DNA of 25,955 nucleotides. It comes from Nitrososphaerota archaeon (lineage in GTDB: Archaea > Thermoproteota > Nitrososphaeria > Nitrososphaerales > Nitrosopumilaceae). The notes under the pieces were generated by a model. The model was not told where the DNA came from. It searched no databases and saw only the letters and a list, made by a program, of their open reading frames with translations. Location: contig JACQFM010000016.1 of assembly GCA_016200035.1 (NCBI GenBank), positions 1 through 25,955 on the forward strand. Direction: 5' to 3'. Below, piece after piece: positions 2,200 to 16,414 of the stretch (positions are counted from its first letter, which is position 1; each line of letters begins with the position of its first letter). The position numbers were made by a program, and so were the translations under genes.

Positions 2200-2940
2200 A
2201 TGTCACTTGAGATTATTCCGGTAATTGTAAACAAGGATGTTGAGCCAGGAGATAACATAGTAGAACTTATCTTATCATCACCATCAAAACCAAAAATAAG
2301 AGACGGTGACGTTTTGATAGTAGCACAAAAAATTATCTCAAAACAAGAGGGAAACATCGTTAATATATCAACCATAAAACCATCACTTCTTGCTGTTGGT
2401 ATTGCAAGTGAATACGCAAAAGATCCAAGAGTCGTAGAACTAATACTTGAACAATCAAAACGTATAGTACGTCTGGGTAACGGTGTAATAATAGTTGAAA
2501 CATTAAATGGTTTTATCTGCGCTAACGCAGGCGTAGACGAGAGTAATGTTAAAGACAACTATGTTACATTGTTGCCAAAAAACCCTGATGTTTCTGCAAA
2601 AAAATTAAGAGATCAGATATTTCAGAAAACAAAAATGAATGTTGCAGTAGTAATATCTGATACATTTGGAAGGCCATTTAGAGAAGGACAGACAAACTTT
2701 GCTATAGGAATTGCTGGAGTTTCCGCACTCTTGGATTATGTAGGAACAAAGGACACCTTTGGAAAGACGCTGCATGTTACAGCAATAGCAGCTGTCGATG
2801 AACTGTGTGCTGCAGCAGAACTTGTAATGGGAAAGACATTCAATACACCAATTGCCATTGTCAGAAATTACAAGTTTAGAAGTTCCGATGATTCGATCTC
2901 AAAATTGTTTAGACCAAAATCTATGGATCTATTTAGATAA
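2200..2940 (+). CDS. cofE: Coenzyme F420-0:L-glutamate ligase
   Basis: AQKIISKQEG, ICANAGVDESN, ISDTFGRPFREG and DELCAAAELVMGK are CofE signature motifs. Confidence 0.95.
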   Translation: MSLEIIPVIVNKDVEPGDNIVELILSSPSKPKIRDGDVLIVAQKIISKQEGNIVNISTIKPSLLAVGIASEYAKDPRVVELILEQSKRIVRLGNGVIIVETLNGFICANAGVDESNVKDNYVTLLPKNPDVSAKKLRDQIFQKTKMNVAVVISDTFGRPFREGQTNFAIGIAGVSALLDYVGTKDTFGKTLHVTAIAAVDELCAAAELVMGKTFNTPIAIVRNYKFRSSDDSISKLFRPKSMDLFR

Positions 2941-3010
2941 CATAAAAAACAATTTTTAAGATACTTTGTAAAATAAAGATTATATTGTAAGCTAAGCAGT
3001 ACGAATAATC

Positions 3011-3931
3011 GTGAATCTTCTGAAGGCAGAGCTACACTGCCATAATCAATTCTCAAACTTTAATCTGGGATTTGGTGAGACACCTTATGACTGCGGTATT
3101 GAAGTGCCAGATCAATTTGACCAAGCCTACAGGGCAGGCTTGGACCTGTTGTTTATAACAAATCACAATACACTGGATGGTTATTCTGCCATGCTTGAAT
3201 ACAAGCAAGACCACGAACGATTACGAAATTTGCAGGTATATCCAGCCGAGGAGATTACAACAAACAATGGAGCACATGTTATTGCATATGGAATTTCTGA
3301 GACAATAAAGCCAGGTCTTACAGTAGAGGAAGTTGTTGATAAGATAAAAGCACAAGGAGCGGTATCAAGTGCACCACATCCTTTTGGTCTAAGTAACGGA
3401 TTACGGGAGAAAGCAATTCTTTGTGATCTAATCGAGGTTTTTAACAGCAATAACGTGGATAGATATTCAAATCTACGGGCCGCACATTTTGCCAAAGCAA
3501 ACAACAAGGTACAAGTGGCAGGAAGTGACTCTCATGTTGTTTCTACGCTGGGTAGATGTACCAACCTAATAGAATCAGAAAATAAACTAGATGATATCTT
3601 GTATGCTATGCTAAAAGGTAAGATCACAATAGAAAACACAGGATACGTTACAAGCAAAGAAATGATAGAACATGCAAAATACAAGATTGTAAATTCCAAA
3701 GATTACATTATAAATTATTTTCATCAGACTCATCCAAATCTGACTGGTCTGTGTCTACTTTTAATACGATTGTTTGAATCAAATCCAAACAGTGTCATCT
3801 GGAAGGGAGTATACAGAATTGCTGTTCATATGACATCAAAGCTTTCTAACAAAGTAAATTTCAAAAATTATGATCACACAATTTTATACGAACGCAATTT
3901 GAGAGCGTTGTTGCCCATGATTCTTCATTGA
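3011..3931 (+). CDS. PHP-domain metallophosphoesterase with C-terminal extension
   Basis: ELHCH, ITNHN, AEE, AHV, APHPF, IEVFN and GSDSH motifs of the PHP family. Confidence 0.92.
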   Translation: MNLLKAELHCHNQFSNFNLGFGETPYDCGIEVPDQFDQAYRAGLDLLFITNHNTLDGYSAMLEYKQDHERLRNLQVYPAEEITTNNGAHVIAYGISETIKPGLTVEEVVDKIKAQGAVSSAPHPFGLSNGLREKAILCDLIEVFNSNNVDRYSNLRAAHFAKANNKVQVAGSDSHVVSTLGRCTNLIESENKLDDILYAMLKGKITIENTGYVTSKEMIEHAKYKIVNSKDYIINYFHQTHPNLTGLCLLLIRLFESNPNSVIWKGVYRIAVHMTSKLSNKVNFKNYDHTILYERNLRALLPMILH

Positions 3932-12988: not shown

Positions 12989-14413
12989 ATGTCAAGCGGC
13001 GGGGCAAGGAAGATCGAAATAGAAGGGATTTCTCCTTTCAAATTGTCCTCCGGTGTCTTTGAGGTTCAGATTGCGATTTGTCAAAGTAAGCCATCTGAAG
13101 AAGAAATTGCAAAAAAAAGTTTTCCATCATTATGGAAAGATGATTTCCATCTAAGAGTCAAGGATTCAAAATTTGCTCAAGTGCTTGGCGCTGATAAAAA
13201 TCCAATCCCCGAATTAGTTTTTCAATTGGGTAGAGCATGGATAGTAATTACTGATCATTTTTCTTCAATTCACGCTGTTTTTGAAACTGAGGTCTCTCCA
13301 CCTGTTGTTAAGAAAGTAGTTGGGACCTATGAACCGAAACCTCAAAGAGCAGAACTAGCGCCTAGACCTACACGAGGAACTGAAGGTCCACCAGGTCCGC
13401 CTGGACCGAGGGGACGGACAGGTCCACAAGGTCCTCCAGGCGATAAAGGCCCACCAGGTCTACAAGGTCAACGTGGAGAAGATGGTCCACTAGGTCCATC
13501 AGGCGACAAAGGTCACTCAGGGCCGCCAGGAGACAAGGGTGAACCTGGTCCAAGAGGTACGCCAGGTGATAAAGGTGACAAAGGTGACAAGGGAGAGCAA
13601 GGTCCACGTGGAGACAAAGGATTAACAGGTGATAAGGGCCCCCCAGGAGACAAGGGACCAAGAGGCGATAAAGGCCCACCAGGTGACAAGGGAGACAAAG
13701 GCGACAAGGGAGACAAAGGCGACAAAGGTCTAACTGGCGATATCGGTCTACCAGGCGATAAAGGTCCGACTGGTCCACCAGGTCCGTCTGGTGACAAAGG
13801 CATCATGGGACCACCTGGAGAAAAAGGAATCAAAGGTCCACCAGGAGCTGCAGGAGATAAAGGAGAGAGAGGTCCACAAGGCCCACAGGGAGAAAAAGGT
13901 CTTACAGGTCCACAAGGTTCGTCAGGTGACAAGGGTCCACAAGGTCCACAAGGTCCTCCAGGAGAGAAAGGTCTAACTGGAGTTCCAGGTCAGCAGGGTG
14001 ATAGGGGTCCAAGGGGAATGCCAGGTCCATCAGGTGAACAGGGTCCAAGAGGACTTCAGGGTCCACCAGGTGATAAGGGTCCAGGTGGTCCACAAGGTCC
14101 ACAAGGTGAAAGAGGTCCACAAGGCCCGCAAGGTACACCAGGCGAACGCGGTCCACAAGGAATCCAAGGGTTGCAGGGAGAACGAGGTCCATCAGGTCCA
14201 CAAGGTTCATCAGGTGACAAGGGTCCACAAGGTCCACAAGGTCCACCAGGTGAACAAGGGCCAAGAGGGCCGCCAGGTCCACCAGGTGATAAAGGCCCTA
14301 CTGGCTTTTCAGAACAAGAAAGAGCACTTCTAACTCAATTGCTAGAATTACTTGTCGCAAAAAATGTTATAACAACAGAACAGCAAATTAAATTACTCAG
14401 TTTTCTGTACTAG
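12989..14413 (+). CDS. Collagen-like protein: 129-aa N-domain, 104 Gly-X-Y triplets, 33-aa Leu-rich C-terminus
   Basis: Residues 130-441 are uninterrupted G-X-Y. No signal peptide or long hydrophobic segment is visible. Confidence 0.95.
13376..14311 (+). repeat. 9-nt-period collagen coding repeat, with a 60-nt duplicated block and a (GDK)5 tandem
   Basis: 13907-13966 and 14195-14254 match at 56/60 nt. GGNGACAAR occurs five times in tandem at 13682-13726. Confidence 0.9.
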
Positions 14414-14514
14414 CAGGTTATACTACATTATTAGACACAGGCAGTCTAAAAATTCAATTTTAGTTTTAAGTTACGTCAGTATCTTCAAATAACTGCAGAG
14501 ACTCTTCATCCTTG

Positions 14515-14799
14515 ATGAGTAGTTCAAAAGATAAGATAGATTTCAAATTGTTAGATCATGAAAGGATAGGAAACGAGTCTGTATCTTTCAAGCTTGAAGA
14601 TGGCACTATAGTAAAAGTCAAAGTAGATTTGGATCGGGTGGGAATAGCTACTAACTACAGAAATCCAGATGGAACTCCACACTATGCCATCAACACTTCA
14701 GTGAAGATATCAGTAATTCCTAGTGAGAGAAAGTTTTCTGTAGAGCGAGAAGCGATAAAAGGAAAATCATCTTCTCCTCCAGGACAGATGTTTAGCTAA
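14515..14799 (+). CDS. Hypothetical beta-rich protein
   Basis: About 94 aa (TTG 14512 or ATG 14515) with LEDGTIVKVKV...NPDGTPHY and natural composition. Confidence 0.8.
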   Translation: MSSSKDKIDFKLLDHERIGNESVSFKLEDGTIVKVKVDLDRVGIATNYRNPDGTPHYAINTSVKISVIPSERKFSVEREAIKGKSSSPPGQMFS

Positions 14800-14820
14800 A
14801 GCTGTAAAAATATGAAGATT

Positions 14821-14838
14821 ATCGCTCAATGGAGCGAT
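14821..14838. terminator. Hairpin ATCGCTC-AATG-GAGCGAT between convergent genes
   Basis: Perfect 7-bp stem with 4-nt loop, in the 66-nt gap between two facing stop codons. Confidence 0.45.
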
Positions 14839-14865
14839 GCTTTCATCTAATCTCTTAGATAAGAA

Positions 14866-15003
14866 CTATCTTCGTCGCTTTTTTGCTTTTTTCTTAGATG
14901 ATCTCTTTGGTCTTCTTGGAGCAGATCGTCGCTTTGTAGCTGGTCTGCGTTTTGAAGATGATCTACGCTTCGCAGCTTTTCTAGATCGCTTTTTAGTCGC
15001 CAT
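14866..15003 (-). CDS. 45-aa protamine/histone-H1-tail-like basic protein
   Basis: Hand translation: MATKKRSRKAAKRRSSSKRRPATKRRSAPRRPKRSSKKKAKKRRR*. ATG to TAG, 14 R and 12 K. Below the ORF-track cutoff. Confidence 0.85.
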   Translation of the reverse strand: MATKKRSRKAAKRRSSSKRRPATKRRSAPRRPKRSSKKKAKKRRR

Positions 15004-15119
15004 TAAAAAAAGTAGAATTAACTTACTTTTCTATAGCTAAACTAAAAAACATTACACTAACTGATTCACAATATGTCACTGGATTTTTTCTAAAAAATTT
15101 TTATTGATCGCAATTTTGA

Positions 15120-15296
15120 TCAGTAAACAGCTTCTGCGGAAGGTCTTCTACCTAACAACCAAGTTTTCTCACCGCAAATTGTGCATTTGTATTGTCTTCT
15201 TCTTTTGTAAGTTGGAATTTCTGGCATGAAAATAATTTCTTGTTTTGTTTTTGCCAGGCATCTTTTGCACCAACGATTTTCAAACTCAGCTTCCAT
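15120..15296 (-). CDS. 58-aa zinc-ribbon protein (2x CxxC)
   Basis: Hand translation: MEAEFENRWCKRCLAKTKQEIIFMPEIPTYKRRRQYKCTICGEKTWLLGRRPSAEAVY*. Starts 11 nt after the drg stop. Confidence 0.88.
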   Translation of the reverse strand: MEAEFENRWCKRCLAKTKQEIIFMPEIPTYKRRRQYKCTICGEKTWLLGRRPSAEAVY

Positions 15297-15307
15297 GTCT
15301 AAAATTT

Positions 15308-16414
15308 TCAGGCTCCCCTGTTTTTTACTATGGTTAGAACATCTTCATCTTGCAAACTATGATGAAGCCCAACTCTTTGTCCACCAAACTTTACACTCTT
15401 TCCCCAAACCAAGCCATATCTGAACTCTTTTTTCAAATCGCGGTGGAGCTTATTACAAATTTCTAGTAGGGTAGAGCCGTTTCTTGTTATTAGAGGCTCT
15501 TTGTAGTCTGTTTCGCCACCCTTTGGTCTCATGTATATCCTAATGAAGTCAAGCTTTTCGTAGATTTTATCCTTGAGTGCGTTTATGTTAATATCGGCGT
15601 CTGCAGATATTGGAATGATTTTTGCTTTTAGATTAGATTGAAGCTCATTTAGAAAACCCTGGTTTACTAGGTCTATTTTGTTTACCACCATAAGTGACTC
15701 AACATAGGTCTTGCTTCCTGAAATAAAATCGATAAGTTGCTCAGAATCAATATCCTCCCTTACTAAGACTCTGGCATTGTTTAGTCCGTAAACGCGGAGA
15801 ATGTCTTTCATAAGGCCAACTGACATTTTTGTCATCTTTATCTGCTGGCTCACAGATATTCCTCCGTCAGATGTTTTTTCGATAACAATGTTTGGTGGTT
15901 TTTGGTCTAATCGAATTCCGATATTTGCAAGCTCTGTCCTAATAACGTCCTCATGATACGGTTGAAAAACATCAAGAAGAATTAGGACTAGGTCAGCACT
16001 TTTTGCCACTGCCAATACGCGCTTACCTAGTCCCTTGCCAGTTGAAGCTCCTTTTATAATTCCAGGCAAATCAAGGATCTGAATCTTTGCGCCACGATGT
16101 TCCATCATTCCAGGAACCACCGTAGTTGTTGTGAATTGAAATGATGCAACAGCTGATTTTGCACCAGTGAGTCTGTTAAGTAAGGTAGATTTTCCAACGC
16201 TTGGCAATCCTAATAATACAACAGTTGCATCACCGGTTCTCTTTACATCAAATCCGACAGAGCTGCCAGATGATTTTGATTTTAGTTCTTCTTGCTCACG
16301 TTTAAGCTTTGCAAGCTTTGCTTTTAACAGACCAACATGGTGCTCCGTGGCTTTGTTTATCTGTGTCTTGGCCATCTCATCTTTTATTGCTTGAATCTTC
16401 TCGGGAATTCCCAT
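15308..16414 (-). CDS. drg: DRG/OBG-family ribosome-associated GTPase with TGS domain
   Basis: N-terminal NKATEHH..LLKAKLAKL, G1 GLPSVGKST, G3 DLPG, G4 NKID and TGS-end VGLHHSLQDEDV. Confidence 0.96.
   Translation of the reverse strand: MGIPEKIQAIKDEMAKTQINKATEHHVGLLKAKLAKLKREQEELKSKSSGSSVGFDVKRTGDATVVLLGLPSVGKSTLLNRLTGAKSAVASFQFTTTTVVPGMMEHRGAKIQILDLPGIIKGASTGKGLGKRVLAVAKSADLVLILLDVFQPYHEDVIRTELANIGIRLDQKPPNIVIEKTSDGGISVSQQIKMTKMSVGLMKDILRVYGLNNARVLVREDIDSEQLIDFISGSKTYVESLMVVNKIDLVNQGFLNELQSNLKAKIIPISADADININALKDKIYEKLDFIRIYMRPKGGETDYKEPLITRNGSTLLEICNKLHRDLKKEFRYGLVWGKSVKFGGQRVGLHHSLQDEDVLTIVKNRGA

Follow-up and report, generated by a model that had tools for sequence, protein, structure and literature searches.

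Does a 45-codon reading frame that encodes little besides arginine, lysine and small residues specify a protein, and if so, what might that protein do in an archaeal cell? The question arises from positions 1–25,955 of a contig of a Nitrososphaerota archaeon (JACQFM010000016.1), a stretch that is called the window here. A first-pass annotation had picked out an ORF at 14866–15003 as an unannotated protamine-like protein and a candidate chromatin-condensing factor of a thaumarchaeote, without giving its strand. The ORF lies on the minus strand and runs from ATG to TAG, the stop being included in the coordinates, and its 45-aa product is MATKKRSRKAAKRRSSSKRRPATKRRSAPRRPKRSSKKKAKKRRR. The gene does belong to a thaumarchaeote, as the closest public loci are metagenome-assembled genomes (MAGs) of Nitrosopumilaceae. 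Ammonia-oxidising archaea rank with the most numerous cells of ocean and soil, and how they package their DNA bears on what we found.

Coding evidence at the basic ORF

The composition given for the product, R14 K12 S7 A6 P3 T2 M1, is exact. Lysine and arginine together make up 58% of the residues (Arg 31%, Lys 27%), the net charge is about +26, the pI is about 12 and the longest run of Arg is 3. There is no acidic, aromatic or large hydrophobic residue, and no signal peptide or hydrophobic segment was found in the protein. The 6-residue periodicity that had been noticed is also there, with residues 11–28 forming three successive x-KRR-xx hexads (AKRRSS, SKRRPA and TKRRSA), and synonymous codons do vary (Arg AGA 7, CGA 5, CGT 1 and CGC 1; Lys AAA 6 and AAG 6; three codons for Ala and two for Ser). 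Because the codons are mixed and Tandem Repeats Finder detects only an 8-nt match in two copies, the window copy is no microsatellite. A single-sequence AlphaFold2 model is all coil (pLDDT 69, pTM 0.14), which is consistent with the intrinsically disordered polycation that had been proposed.

The ORF exceeds chance expectation in its own genome. The 1.2-Mb assembly contains 13,746 ORFs that are 24 aa or longer, and only 3 of these, the window ORF among them, have a K+R content of 45% or more. The remaining two arise where Glu/Lys-rich tails of larger genes are read out of frame.

The first-pass annotation had suggested looking downstream of drg in other genomes, and held that the lack of a syntenic basic ORF there would count against the gene. 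Whole-genome HMMER with the 45-mer recovered only two of the four same-genus genomes, and those weakly. Because sequence searches of this kind recovered almost nothing, we adopted synteny anchors and DNA patterns. With the DRG-type GTPase gene (15308–16414, minus strand; MMR_HSR1, MMR_HSR1_Xtn and TGS domains) as the anchor, 40 relatives were examined for a basic ORF at the same place. All 5 genomes of the genus had one (24–45 aa), as did 18 of the 24 other Nitrosopumilaceae genomes in the sample. Both tallies count one unpublished genome, whose 39-aa orthologue is identical to that on the public MAG contig JBOGRG010000196.1. A profile of the zinc-ribbon gene next to drg (15120–15296, minus strand) yielded 80 more public loci, 75 of them usable, and about 58 of those 75 carry the basic ORF, including contigs named Nitrosotalea, Nitrosarchaeum and Nitrosopumilus. 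At every orthologous locus, 112–125 nt separate the zinc-ribbon stop from the start of the ORF. Basic ORFs are therefore syntenic in most relatives, and the objection that had been foreseen does not arise.

Comparison of the coding sequences shows what has been kept. All 81 distinct sequences start with ATG, and codon 2 is Ala in 76 of them, spelled GCT in 39, GCA in 36 and GCG in 1. The start is mostly ATG-Ala-Thr-Lys, with four codons in use for Thr3, and the end is mostly Arg-Arg-Arg-stop, with a near-even mix of CGA and AGA and with TAA, TAG or TGA as the stop. Since these residues stay constant through synonymous changes, including first-position changes from AGA to CGA, selection acts on the protein. 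Length in the same 81 sequences ranges from 18 to 152 aa, and the top-scoring tandem-repeat periods (12, 18, 24, 30, 33, 36, 45, 51, 66, 72, 78, 81, 93 and 162 nt) are all multiples of 3. Two species that encode the same 42-aa protein differ at five bases, and all five differences are silent in the sense frame only. A 114-aa orthologue has been annotated as a gene, with no Pfam family, on the 1.646-Mb Nitrosopumilus chromosome CP067007.1 (N. maritimus; orthologue at about 823,741–824,085, paralogue at about 633.7 kb), so the label "unannotated" does not wholly hold for the family.

The same data bear on whether the locus makes a different product or none. In such a case the basic ORF would be a chance frame in a purine-rich spacer, or the real product would be an RNA or the 67-aa ORF on the opposite (plus) strand at 14837–15040. 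Although the sense frame alone is open in all 19 orthologues tested, other frames are often open too, the antisense one in 17 and the +2 frame in 15, and the exact basic proteins are absent from large protein collections. Set against these points are the conserved ATG-Ala-Thr-Lys start and Arg-Arg-Arg-stop end with their synonymous codon variation, a sense frame kept through many indels, antisense stops in 2 of 19 orthologues, the five of five substitutions that are silent in the sense frame only, a promoter positioned for the sense ATG, and the lack of any Rfam family match. The antisense 67-aa ORF was rejected as the product on its stops in two orthologues and on the sense-only silent changes. 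Rfam models run on 14400–15400 gave nothing above E 0.08, a result that excludes a known RNA gene at the locus. That no functional protein is made here strikes us as very improbable, and we hold the basic ORF to be, with little doubt, a real gene. It is conserved and under selection at the protein level.

Family variation, relatives and database coverage

The 79 distinct proteins have 4,657 residues between them, of which one is acidic and none is Phe, Trp, Tyr, Cys or His. K+R makes up 44–63% of each protein, and K/(K+R) spans 0.15 to 0.73, so it is charge that is conserved and not residue identity. Pooled over 34 orthologues, the composition is 31% Lys, 25% Ala, 21% Arg, 9% Thr, 6% Pro and 5% Ser. 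The termini are conserved as M-A-T-K-(K/R)-(K/R) at the N-terminal end and (K/R)RRR at the C-terminal end. Repeat units are SAPKRR and AKRRS near the window's genus and AAPKRK(T)AAKK in Nitrosopumilus and Nitrosarchaeum; two genera have Thr-rich units, and five lineages have a Val-rich variant, RKAVVRKAVRR. The five Val-rich focal proteins (RKAVVRKAVRRAV..., with at least 10% Val) are encoded at the same locus behind the same promoter. In this variant Val stands in for most of the Ala, which could favour amphipathic helices.

Short motifs vary in the same way. The pattern AP[KR][KR] is found in 60 of the 79 distinct proteins and once in the window copy (SAPRR, residue 28). By comparison, [ST]P[KR][KR] is found in one of the 79, which is not the window copy. 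Of the 79, 62 contain RR[ST], in many cases as a KRRS near the N-terminus. The first-pass annotation had raised the idea of phospho-regulation at such sites. Three of the 79 proteins have no Ser or Thr beyond residue 3, so a phospho-switch, although possible from the motifs present, would not be a family-wide feature.

The MATKRK N-terminal DNA pattern matched in 27 of 40 genomes of the family. It also matched in 2 of 160 genomes from the order's other families, and both of these matches are chance ORFs of 11–20 aa. A search with the 114-aa orthologue gave matches in a second family (f14; genus g51, with 0.8–1 Mb genomes), where stand-alone ORFs of (K/R)-Ala-Pro repeats are present in 8 of 14 genomes. 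Three such ORFs carry (A/T)KRKAAPKRK repeats, are 70–109 aa long and have an apparent TTG start; their gene context and upstream region differ from those of the focal locus.

Nitrosopumilus-type genomes also carry a paralogue, which we call B. It is 53–127 aa long and has a conserved start, SKAKR(A/S)xAAKKAARTRKRNAA, followed by AAPKRK-type repeats. Eight loci of paralogue B were recorded, and it has a conserved promoter of its own. Two genera without the focal gene have it, and the query used did not detect it in the window's genus. One genome carries the focal gene (L016:2920–3264) and paralogue B (L173:1506–1889, minus strand) 190 kb apart, and a 182-nt stretch inside the repeats is 100% identical between them, which indicates gene conversion, concerted evolution or a very recent copy. 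In another genome the two genes are 96% identical over 97 nt. A further paralogue in Nitrosopumilus-type genomes has an acidic coiled-coil head.

The same repeat module forms tails on other Nitrosopumilaceae proteins. Outside the window, contig C136 of the window's own genome has (about 2900–3730, plus strand) an ORF that encodes at least 276 aa with a coiled coil; its last 95 or so residues are a Lys/Arg tail, ...RTRTRTRKARKTKTRTRK...GKRR. A larger protein of this organism thus bears a polycationic tail as well. Two other genomes encode proteins of 283–347 aa that start with MATK(S/R)K and have a basic N-terminal stretch, followed by a coiled coil and PKPAE/KPKPE repeats.

We searched for relatives of known function in several collections. 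The window protein had no family match in Pfam (E ≤ 1) or NCBIfam, and the 45-aa protein gave no matches in a word-indexed protein search or in the PDB. Exact look-up in a collection of 15 billion proteins did not find the window protein, and of 10 orthologues looked up none was on record. An exhaustive phmmer search with the 114-aa orthologue against 1.84 billion representatives returned 52 weak matches. The best of these fall in basic tails that adenylate kinase, Hsp20 and nitrile hydratase carry; we rejected them as relatives, the likeness being one of composition and not of kinship. The family's own cluster is not among the 1.84 billion representatives. With the Hc2 model (PF07382), the 114-aa orthologue scored 15.8 bits (E 0.015), below the cut-off of 40, and another orthologue had an E-value of 0.38. 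The ESM Atlas gave top scores of 0.89 to unnamed clusters, and the nearest named cluster was HC2 at 0.78, which we take as a lead only. Judged by these searches, the protein is a member of no known family, and what it has in common with named ones is a likeness of kind.

Some of this scarcity may be technical. Logan contigs with an identical DRG stop short of the ORF, and several public contigs end inside or just before the basic repeats. Assemblies tend to break at the basic gene, which adds to its under-representation in databases. Trypsin would be expected to cut the protein to di- and tripeptides, so tryptic proteomics would miss it. This is a case of a real gene family slipping through standard resources, namely protein collections, assemblies and trypsin-based proteomics. 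Literature searches for a described H1-like or protamine-like protein found none, in Thaumarchaeota or in other archaea, among the papers searched. To our knowledge, this would be the first conserved stand-alone polycation of the H1-tail kind to be described in archaea.

Promoter, neighbourhood and candidate roles

The 70 nt that precede the ATG show striking conservation between genera, including genera whose DRG is only 64–70% identical to the window's. Alignment of 19 orthologous upstream regions gave the consensus ATCAnTTnGTGTAAT-TTTnTTTAGTTTAACTATAGAAAA and a promoter core, TTTAGTTTAGCTATAGAAAA, at 15027–15046 on the minus strand, with the TATA box at −32 to −25 (15035–15028). TATA/TTTA motifs before the ATG of 841 long ORFs of the same genome peak at −31 to −26, as leaderless transcripts would lead one to expect. 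The TATA at −32 matches this genome-wide peak, which suggests that the basic gene probably has its own transcript, leaderless or nearly so. A literature search for promoter or transcription start site data from Nitrosopumilus returned nothing relevant.

Farther upstream is a conserved box, ATCAGTTAGTGTAAT, at 15051–15065 on the minus strand (−62 to −48), which its conservation marks as a candidate regulator site. The exact box occurs only here in the assembly, where eight 15-mers lie within two mismatches of it, the box itself included. Most orthologues have a direct repeat, TGTAAT-N7-TGTAAT, at about 15051–15075 (minus strand), with its second copy inside the box; the window's version is TGTGAAT...GTGTAAT. 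This repeat is a possible binding site for a dedicated regulator. The conserved block as a whole, about 45 nt, occurs once in the assembly. We rejected it as a regulon motif on this uniqueness and on its absence from five family genomes that lack the gene.

Past the end of the basic gene, a pattern scan found an 8-bp hairpin with four G-C pairs at 14820–14839 (fold −17.7 kcal/mol, z −2.6). It lies between two convergent genes, and a U-rich tract follows it on the minus strand, so that it appears terminator-like.

The basic ORF lies on the same strand as an MJ1316-like ORF, drg and the zinc-ribbon gene. The zinc-ribbon gene encodes 58 aa with a CxxC-24-CxxC arrangement and is outside the transcription unit of the basic gene. 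In nine sequences from nine genera, 28 of its positions are invariant, including an RRPSAExVY C-terminus, and neither Pfam nor NCBIfam has a family for it. It almost always comes after drg, although in three genomes of the family it is missing there. On the other side, a convergent gene for a 95-aa protein of no family (14512–14799, plus strand; C-terminus ...SSPPGQMFS) and a gene for a collagen-repeat protein with six Pfam Collagen stretches (12989–14413, plus strand) keep their place family-wide, even where the basic gene is absent.

About 14 lineages have the zinc-ribbon gene without the basic gene. In these, for example CSP1-1 and the marine NP-delta and NP-iota MAGs, promoter and basic ORF are missing together, drg and the zinc-ribbon gene persist, and the zinc-ribbon gene directly abuts the convergent gene. 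Because promoter and ORF are lost together, the basic gene is a discrete single-gene cassette and not the tail of a drg operon. The clean loss also indicates that the gene is dispensable or replaceable.

The neighbourhood raises the idea of a role in translation. On this view the polycation would associate with RNA or with ribosomes. It might bind rRNA as the peptides eL41 and bTHX do, serve in ribosome biogenesis or hibernation, or act as an RNA chaperone, and it might have the neighbouring DRG GTPase and zinc-ribbon protein as partners. The conserved place directly downstream of the MJ1316-like, drg and zinc-ribbon genes agrees with this, and disordered peptides rich in Lys and Arg bind rRNA. 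None of 26 relatives had a match to the eL41 Pfam model that reached the cut-off, which may leave a small basic ribosomal peptide still to be accounted for. Several observations argue the other way. The basic gene has a conserved promoter of its own, 112–125 nt past the zinc-ribbon stop, and drg and the zinc ribbon remain where that promoter and the ORF have been deleted. Similar proteins occur in unrelated contexts, as in family f14, and as paralogues. A range of 18–152 aa with repeat turnover between species is hard to reconcile with a fixed place in the ribosome. The ORF itself gave no match to PF05162, although the model is below its cut-off in control genomes too. On that result, with the insensitivity of the model in the controls, and on the variable length we rejected an identity with eL41. 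The wider reading as an RNA or ribosome partner we consider unlikely.

The reading that we favour is that the product is a stand-alone nucleoid polycation of the H1-tail/Hc2 kind, an assignment by analogy that we hold to be about as probable as everything else put together. The protein, a polycation predicted to be disordered and with about +0.5 charge per residue, is made of fast-evolving tandem basic units between conserved termini, and the units are x-KRR-xx in the window and AAPKRK, SAPKRR and RKAVVRK in relatives. It would bind chromosomal DNA non-specifically through electrostatic contacts, neutralise phosphate charge, and bridge or compact the nucleoid. In this it would act like the C-terminal tail of linker histone H1, chlamydial Hc2 and the Lys/Ala/Pro tail of mycobacterial HupB, as a tail alone, without any folded DNA-binding domain. 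We think it likely that the protein binds polyanions of some kind; whether DNA is the main one is a close call, and we put it at nearly an even chance.

Three considerations point to DNA. The composition and the repeat architecture match those of DNA condensers, namely the H1 C-terminal domain, Hc2 and the HupB tail. The gene is small, basic and a single-gene unit, as expected of archaeal nucleoid proteins, for which published criteria include the single-gene unit (Hocher et al., bioRxiv 10.1101/2021.07.08.451601); here the product has 45 aa and a pI of about 12, and the gene has its own promoter block and a convergent gene downstream. Finally, Nitrosopumilus maritimus has almost no histone protein, with histones at less than 0.06% of the proteome in published proteomics (Hocher et al.). 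Other considerations weigh against DNA. The likeness to H1, Hc2 and HupB tails is compositional and not homologous, and the canonical minor-groove motif [ST]P[KR][KR] is present in just 1 of 79 proteins. The gene is dispensable or replaceable, being absent from about 14 lineages, and the neighbouring drg and zinc-ribbon genes point to translation. Moreover, a polycation will bind RNA or polyphosphate no less readily than DNA.

Polyphosphate is the basis of another possible role. The protein might organise polyphosphate granules in the way of the H1-like AlgP of Pseudomonas aeruginosa, a Lys/Ala/Pro repeat protein that localises to such granules (PMC9239181). The composition of AlgP is alike, and N. 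maritimus has granules interpreted as polyphosphate (PMC11082331). There are, on the other hand, no ppk, ppx or other phosphate genes in the window, and nothing specific separates polyphosphate binding from DNA binding, with which it is compatible. We regard a granule protein as quite improbable.

The patchy presence and absence of the gene, its fast repeat turnover with paralogues evolving in concert, and the Val-rich RKAVVRK variant in five lineages could each fit some further polycation role, such as a buffer for foreign nucleic acid, a partner for an acidic protein, or a secreted or surface-active peptide. These features are offset by the lack of a signal peptide or hydrophobic segment in the window protein, by the absence of defence or mobile-element genes near the locus, and by a place conserved within a core-gene neighbourhood. 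A role of this sort is improbable in our estimate.

If the favoured reading, a stand-alone nucleoid polycation, is taken further, the focal family and its repeat-module paralogues might together form the main chromatin coat of Nitrosopumilaceae, replacing the barely expressed histones. They would have stayed unseen because gene callers and databases drop them and trypsin destroys them, and the number of repeats, homogenised by gene conversion, would tune nucleoid compaction in each lineage. Taken as a whole, this extended proposal is speculative and rather unlikely. The favoured reading would by itself make the basic protein a concrete candidate for the missing nucleoid coat of ammonia-oxidising archaea.

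Comparison with known systems

"Protamine-like", the name under which the ORF was first listed, turns out to be loose. Lys and Arg are about equally frequent in the window copy, and the orthologues are mostly rich in Lys, Ala and Pro, closer to H1 C-terminal tails or to Hc2. No protamine, H1 or Hc2 model matched the window protein. True protamines (P1/P2, PF00260) are sperm proteins with Arg clusters, marked by an Arg content of at least about 50%, runs of 4–6 Arg and a match to the model. The archaeal family is unrelated to them, and the window protein has none of these marks.

The C-terminal domain of linker histone H1 and the sperm proteins that are called "protamine-like" come closer. They share with the archaeal family a composition of Lys, Ala, Pro, Ser and Thr, disorder, about +0.4 to +0.6 charge per residue and a variable length. 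As in the H1 tail, Ser and Thr beside basic residues could be phosphorylated. A linker histone H1/H5 is defined by a winged helix with basic tails. The 45-aa protein differs in having no winged-helix globular domain and no match to PF00538, and its AlphaFold2 model contains no folded segment. Arg is also far more abundant in the archaeal family than in H1 tails, and the S/TPKK motif is found in 1 of 79 proteins. The repeated [ST]-P-[KR]-[KR] turns that characterise SPKK minor-groove binders are accordingly lacking.

Mycobacterial HupB/Hlp and AlgP of Pseudomonas share tandem basic repeats of the PAKKA/KPAA type with the archaeal proteins. HupB repeats bind DNA and AlgP binds polyphosphate granules (PMC9239181). 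In HupB the tail is attached to an HU fold, and AlgP is a much longer protein, whereas the archaeal protein is the tail alone, and no homology was detected.

The ribosomal peptides eL41 (PF05162) and bTHX are likewise tiny, extremely basic and often missed by annotation, and the archaeal gene lies near translation genes. The differences are in length and distribution. eL41 is described by a 25-position model and has a fixed length of about 25–40 aa; the archaeal family has an approximately 8-fold length range through repeat turnover, and it is absent from some lineages that keep drg. No match to the eL41 model was obtained at E ≤ 1, a result to be read with the failure of that model to reach its cut-off in the controls.

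Within archaea, a comparable case is WP_019177984.1 from Methanomassiliicoccales, a small, basic, Lys-rich protein without domains, encoded as a single-gene unit and proposed as a nucleoid protein of a mesophilic archaeon (Hocher et al., bioRxiv 10.1101/2021.07.08.451601). It has 74 aa and a pI of 9.6 and was detected by proteomics (Hocher et al.). Compared by description only, the present family is far more extreme, with a pI of about 12, virtually no acidic residues and an architecture based on repeats.

Chlamydial Hc2 (HctB, PF07382) is the only named family that gave any signal for archaeal orthologues. Like the archaeal family, it is a stand-alone protein almost wholly of Lys, Arg and Ala (with Val, Thr and Pro) built of short tandem basic repeats, and the number of repeats varies, in Hc2 between strains. 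The archaeal proteins show this architecture with lengths of 18–152 aa and periods of 12–162 nt. Hc2 condenses DNA electrostatically. The homology is not significant, however, as the window copy is unmatched and no orthologue reached the gathering score of 40 bits. Hc2 is a bacterial protein with developmental expression, whereas the archaeal family has its own MATK(K/R)(K/R) start, RRR end and promoter. By these family-specific termini and this promoter, the archaeal polycation appears as a new stand-alone protein of the H1-tail/Hc2 kind, and its function, by analogy with these systems, may be to coat and compact the nucleoid.
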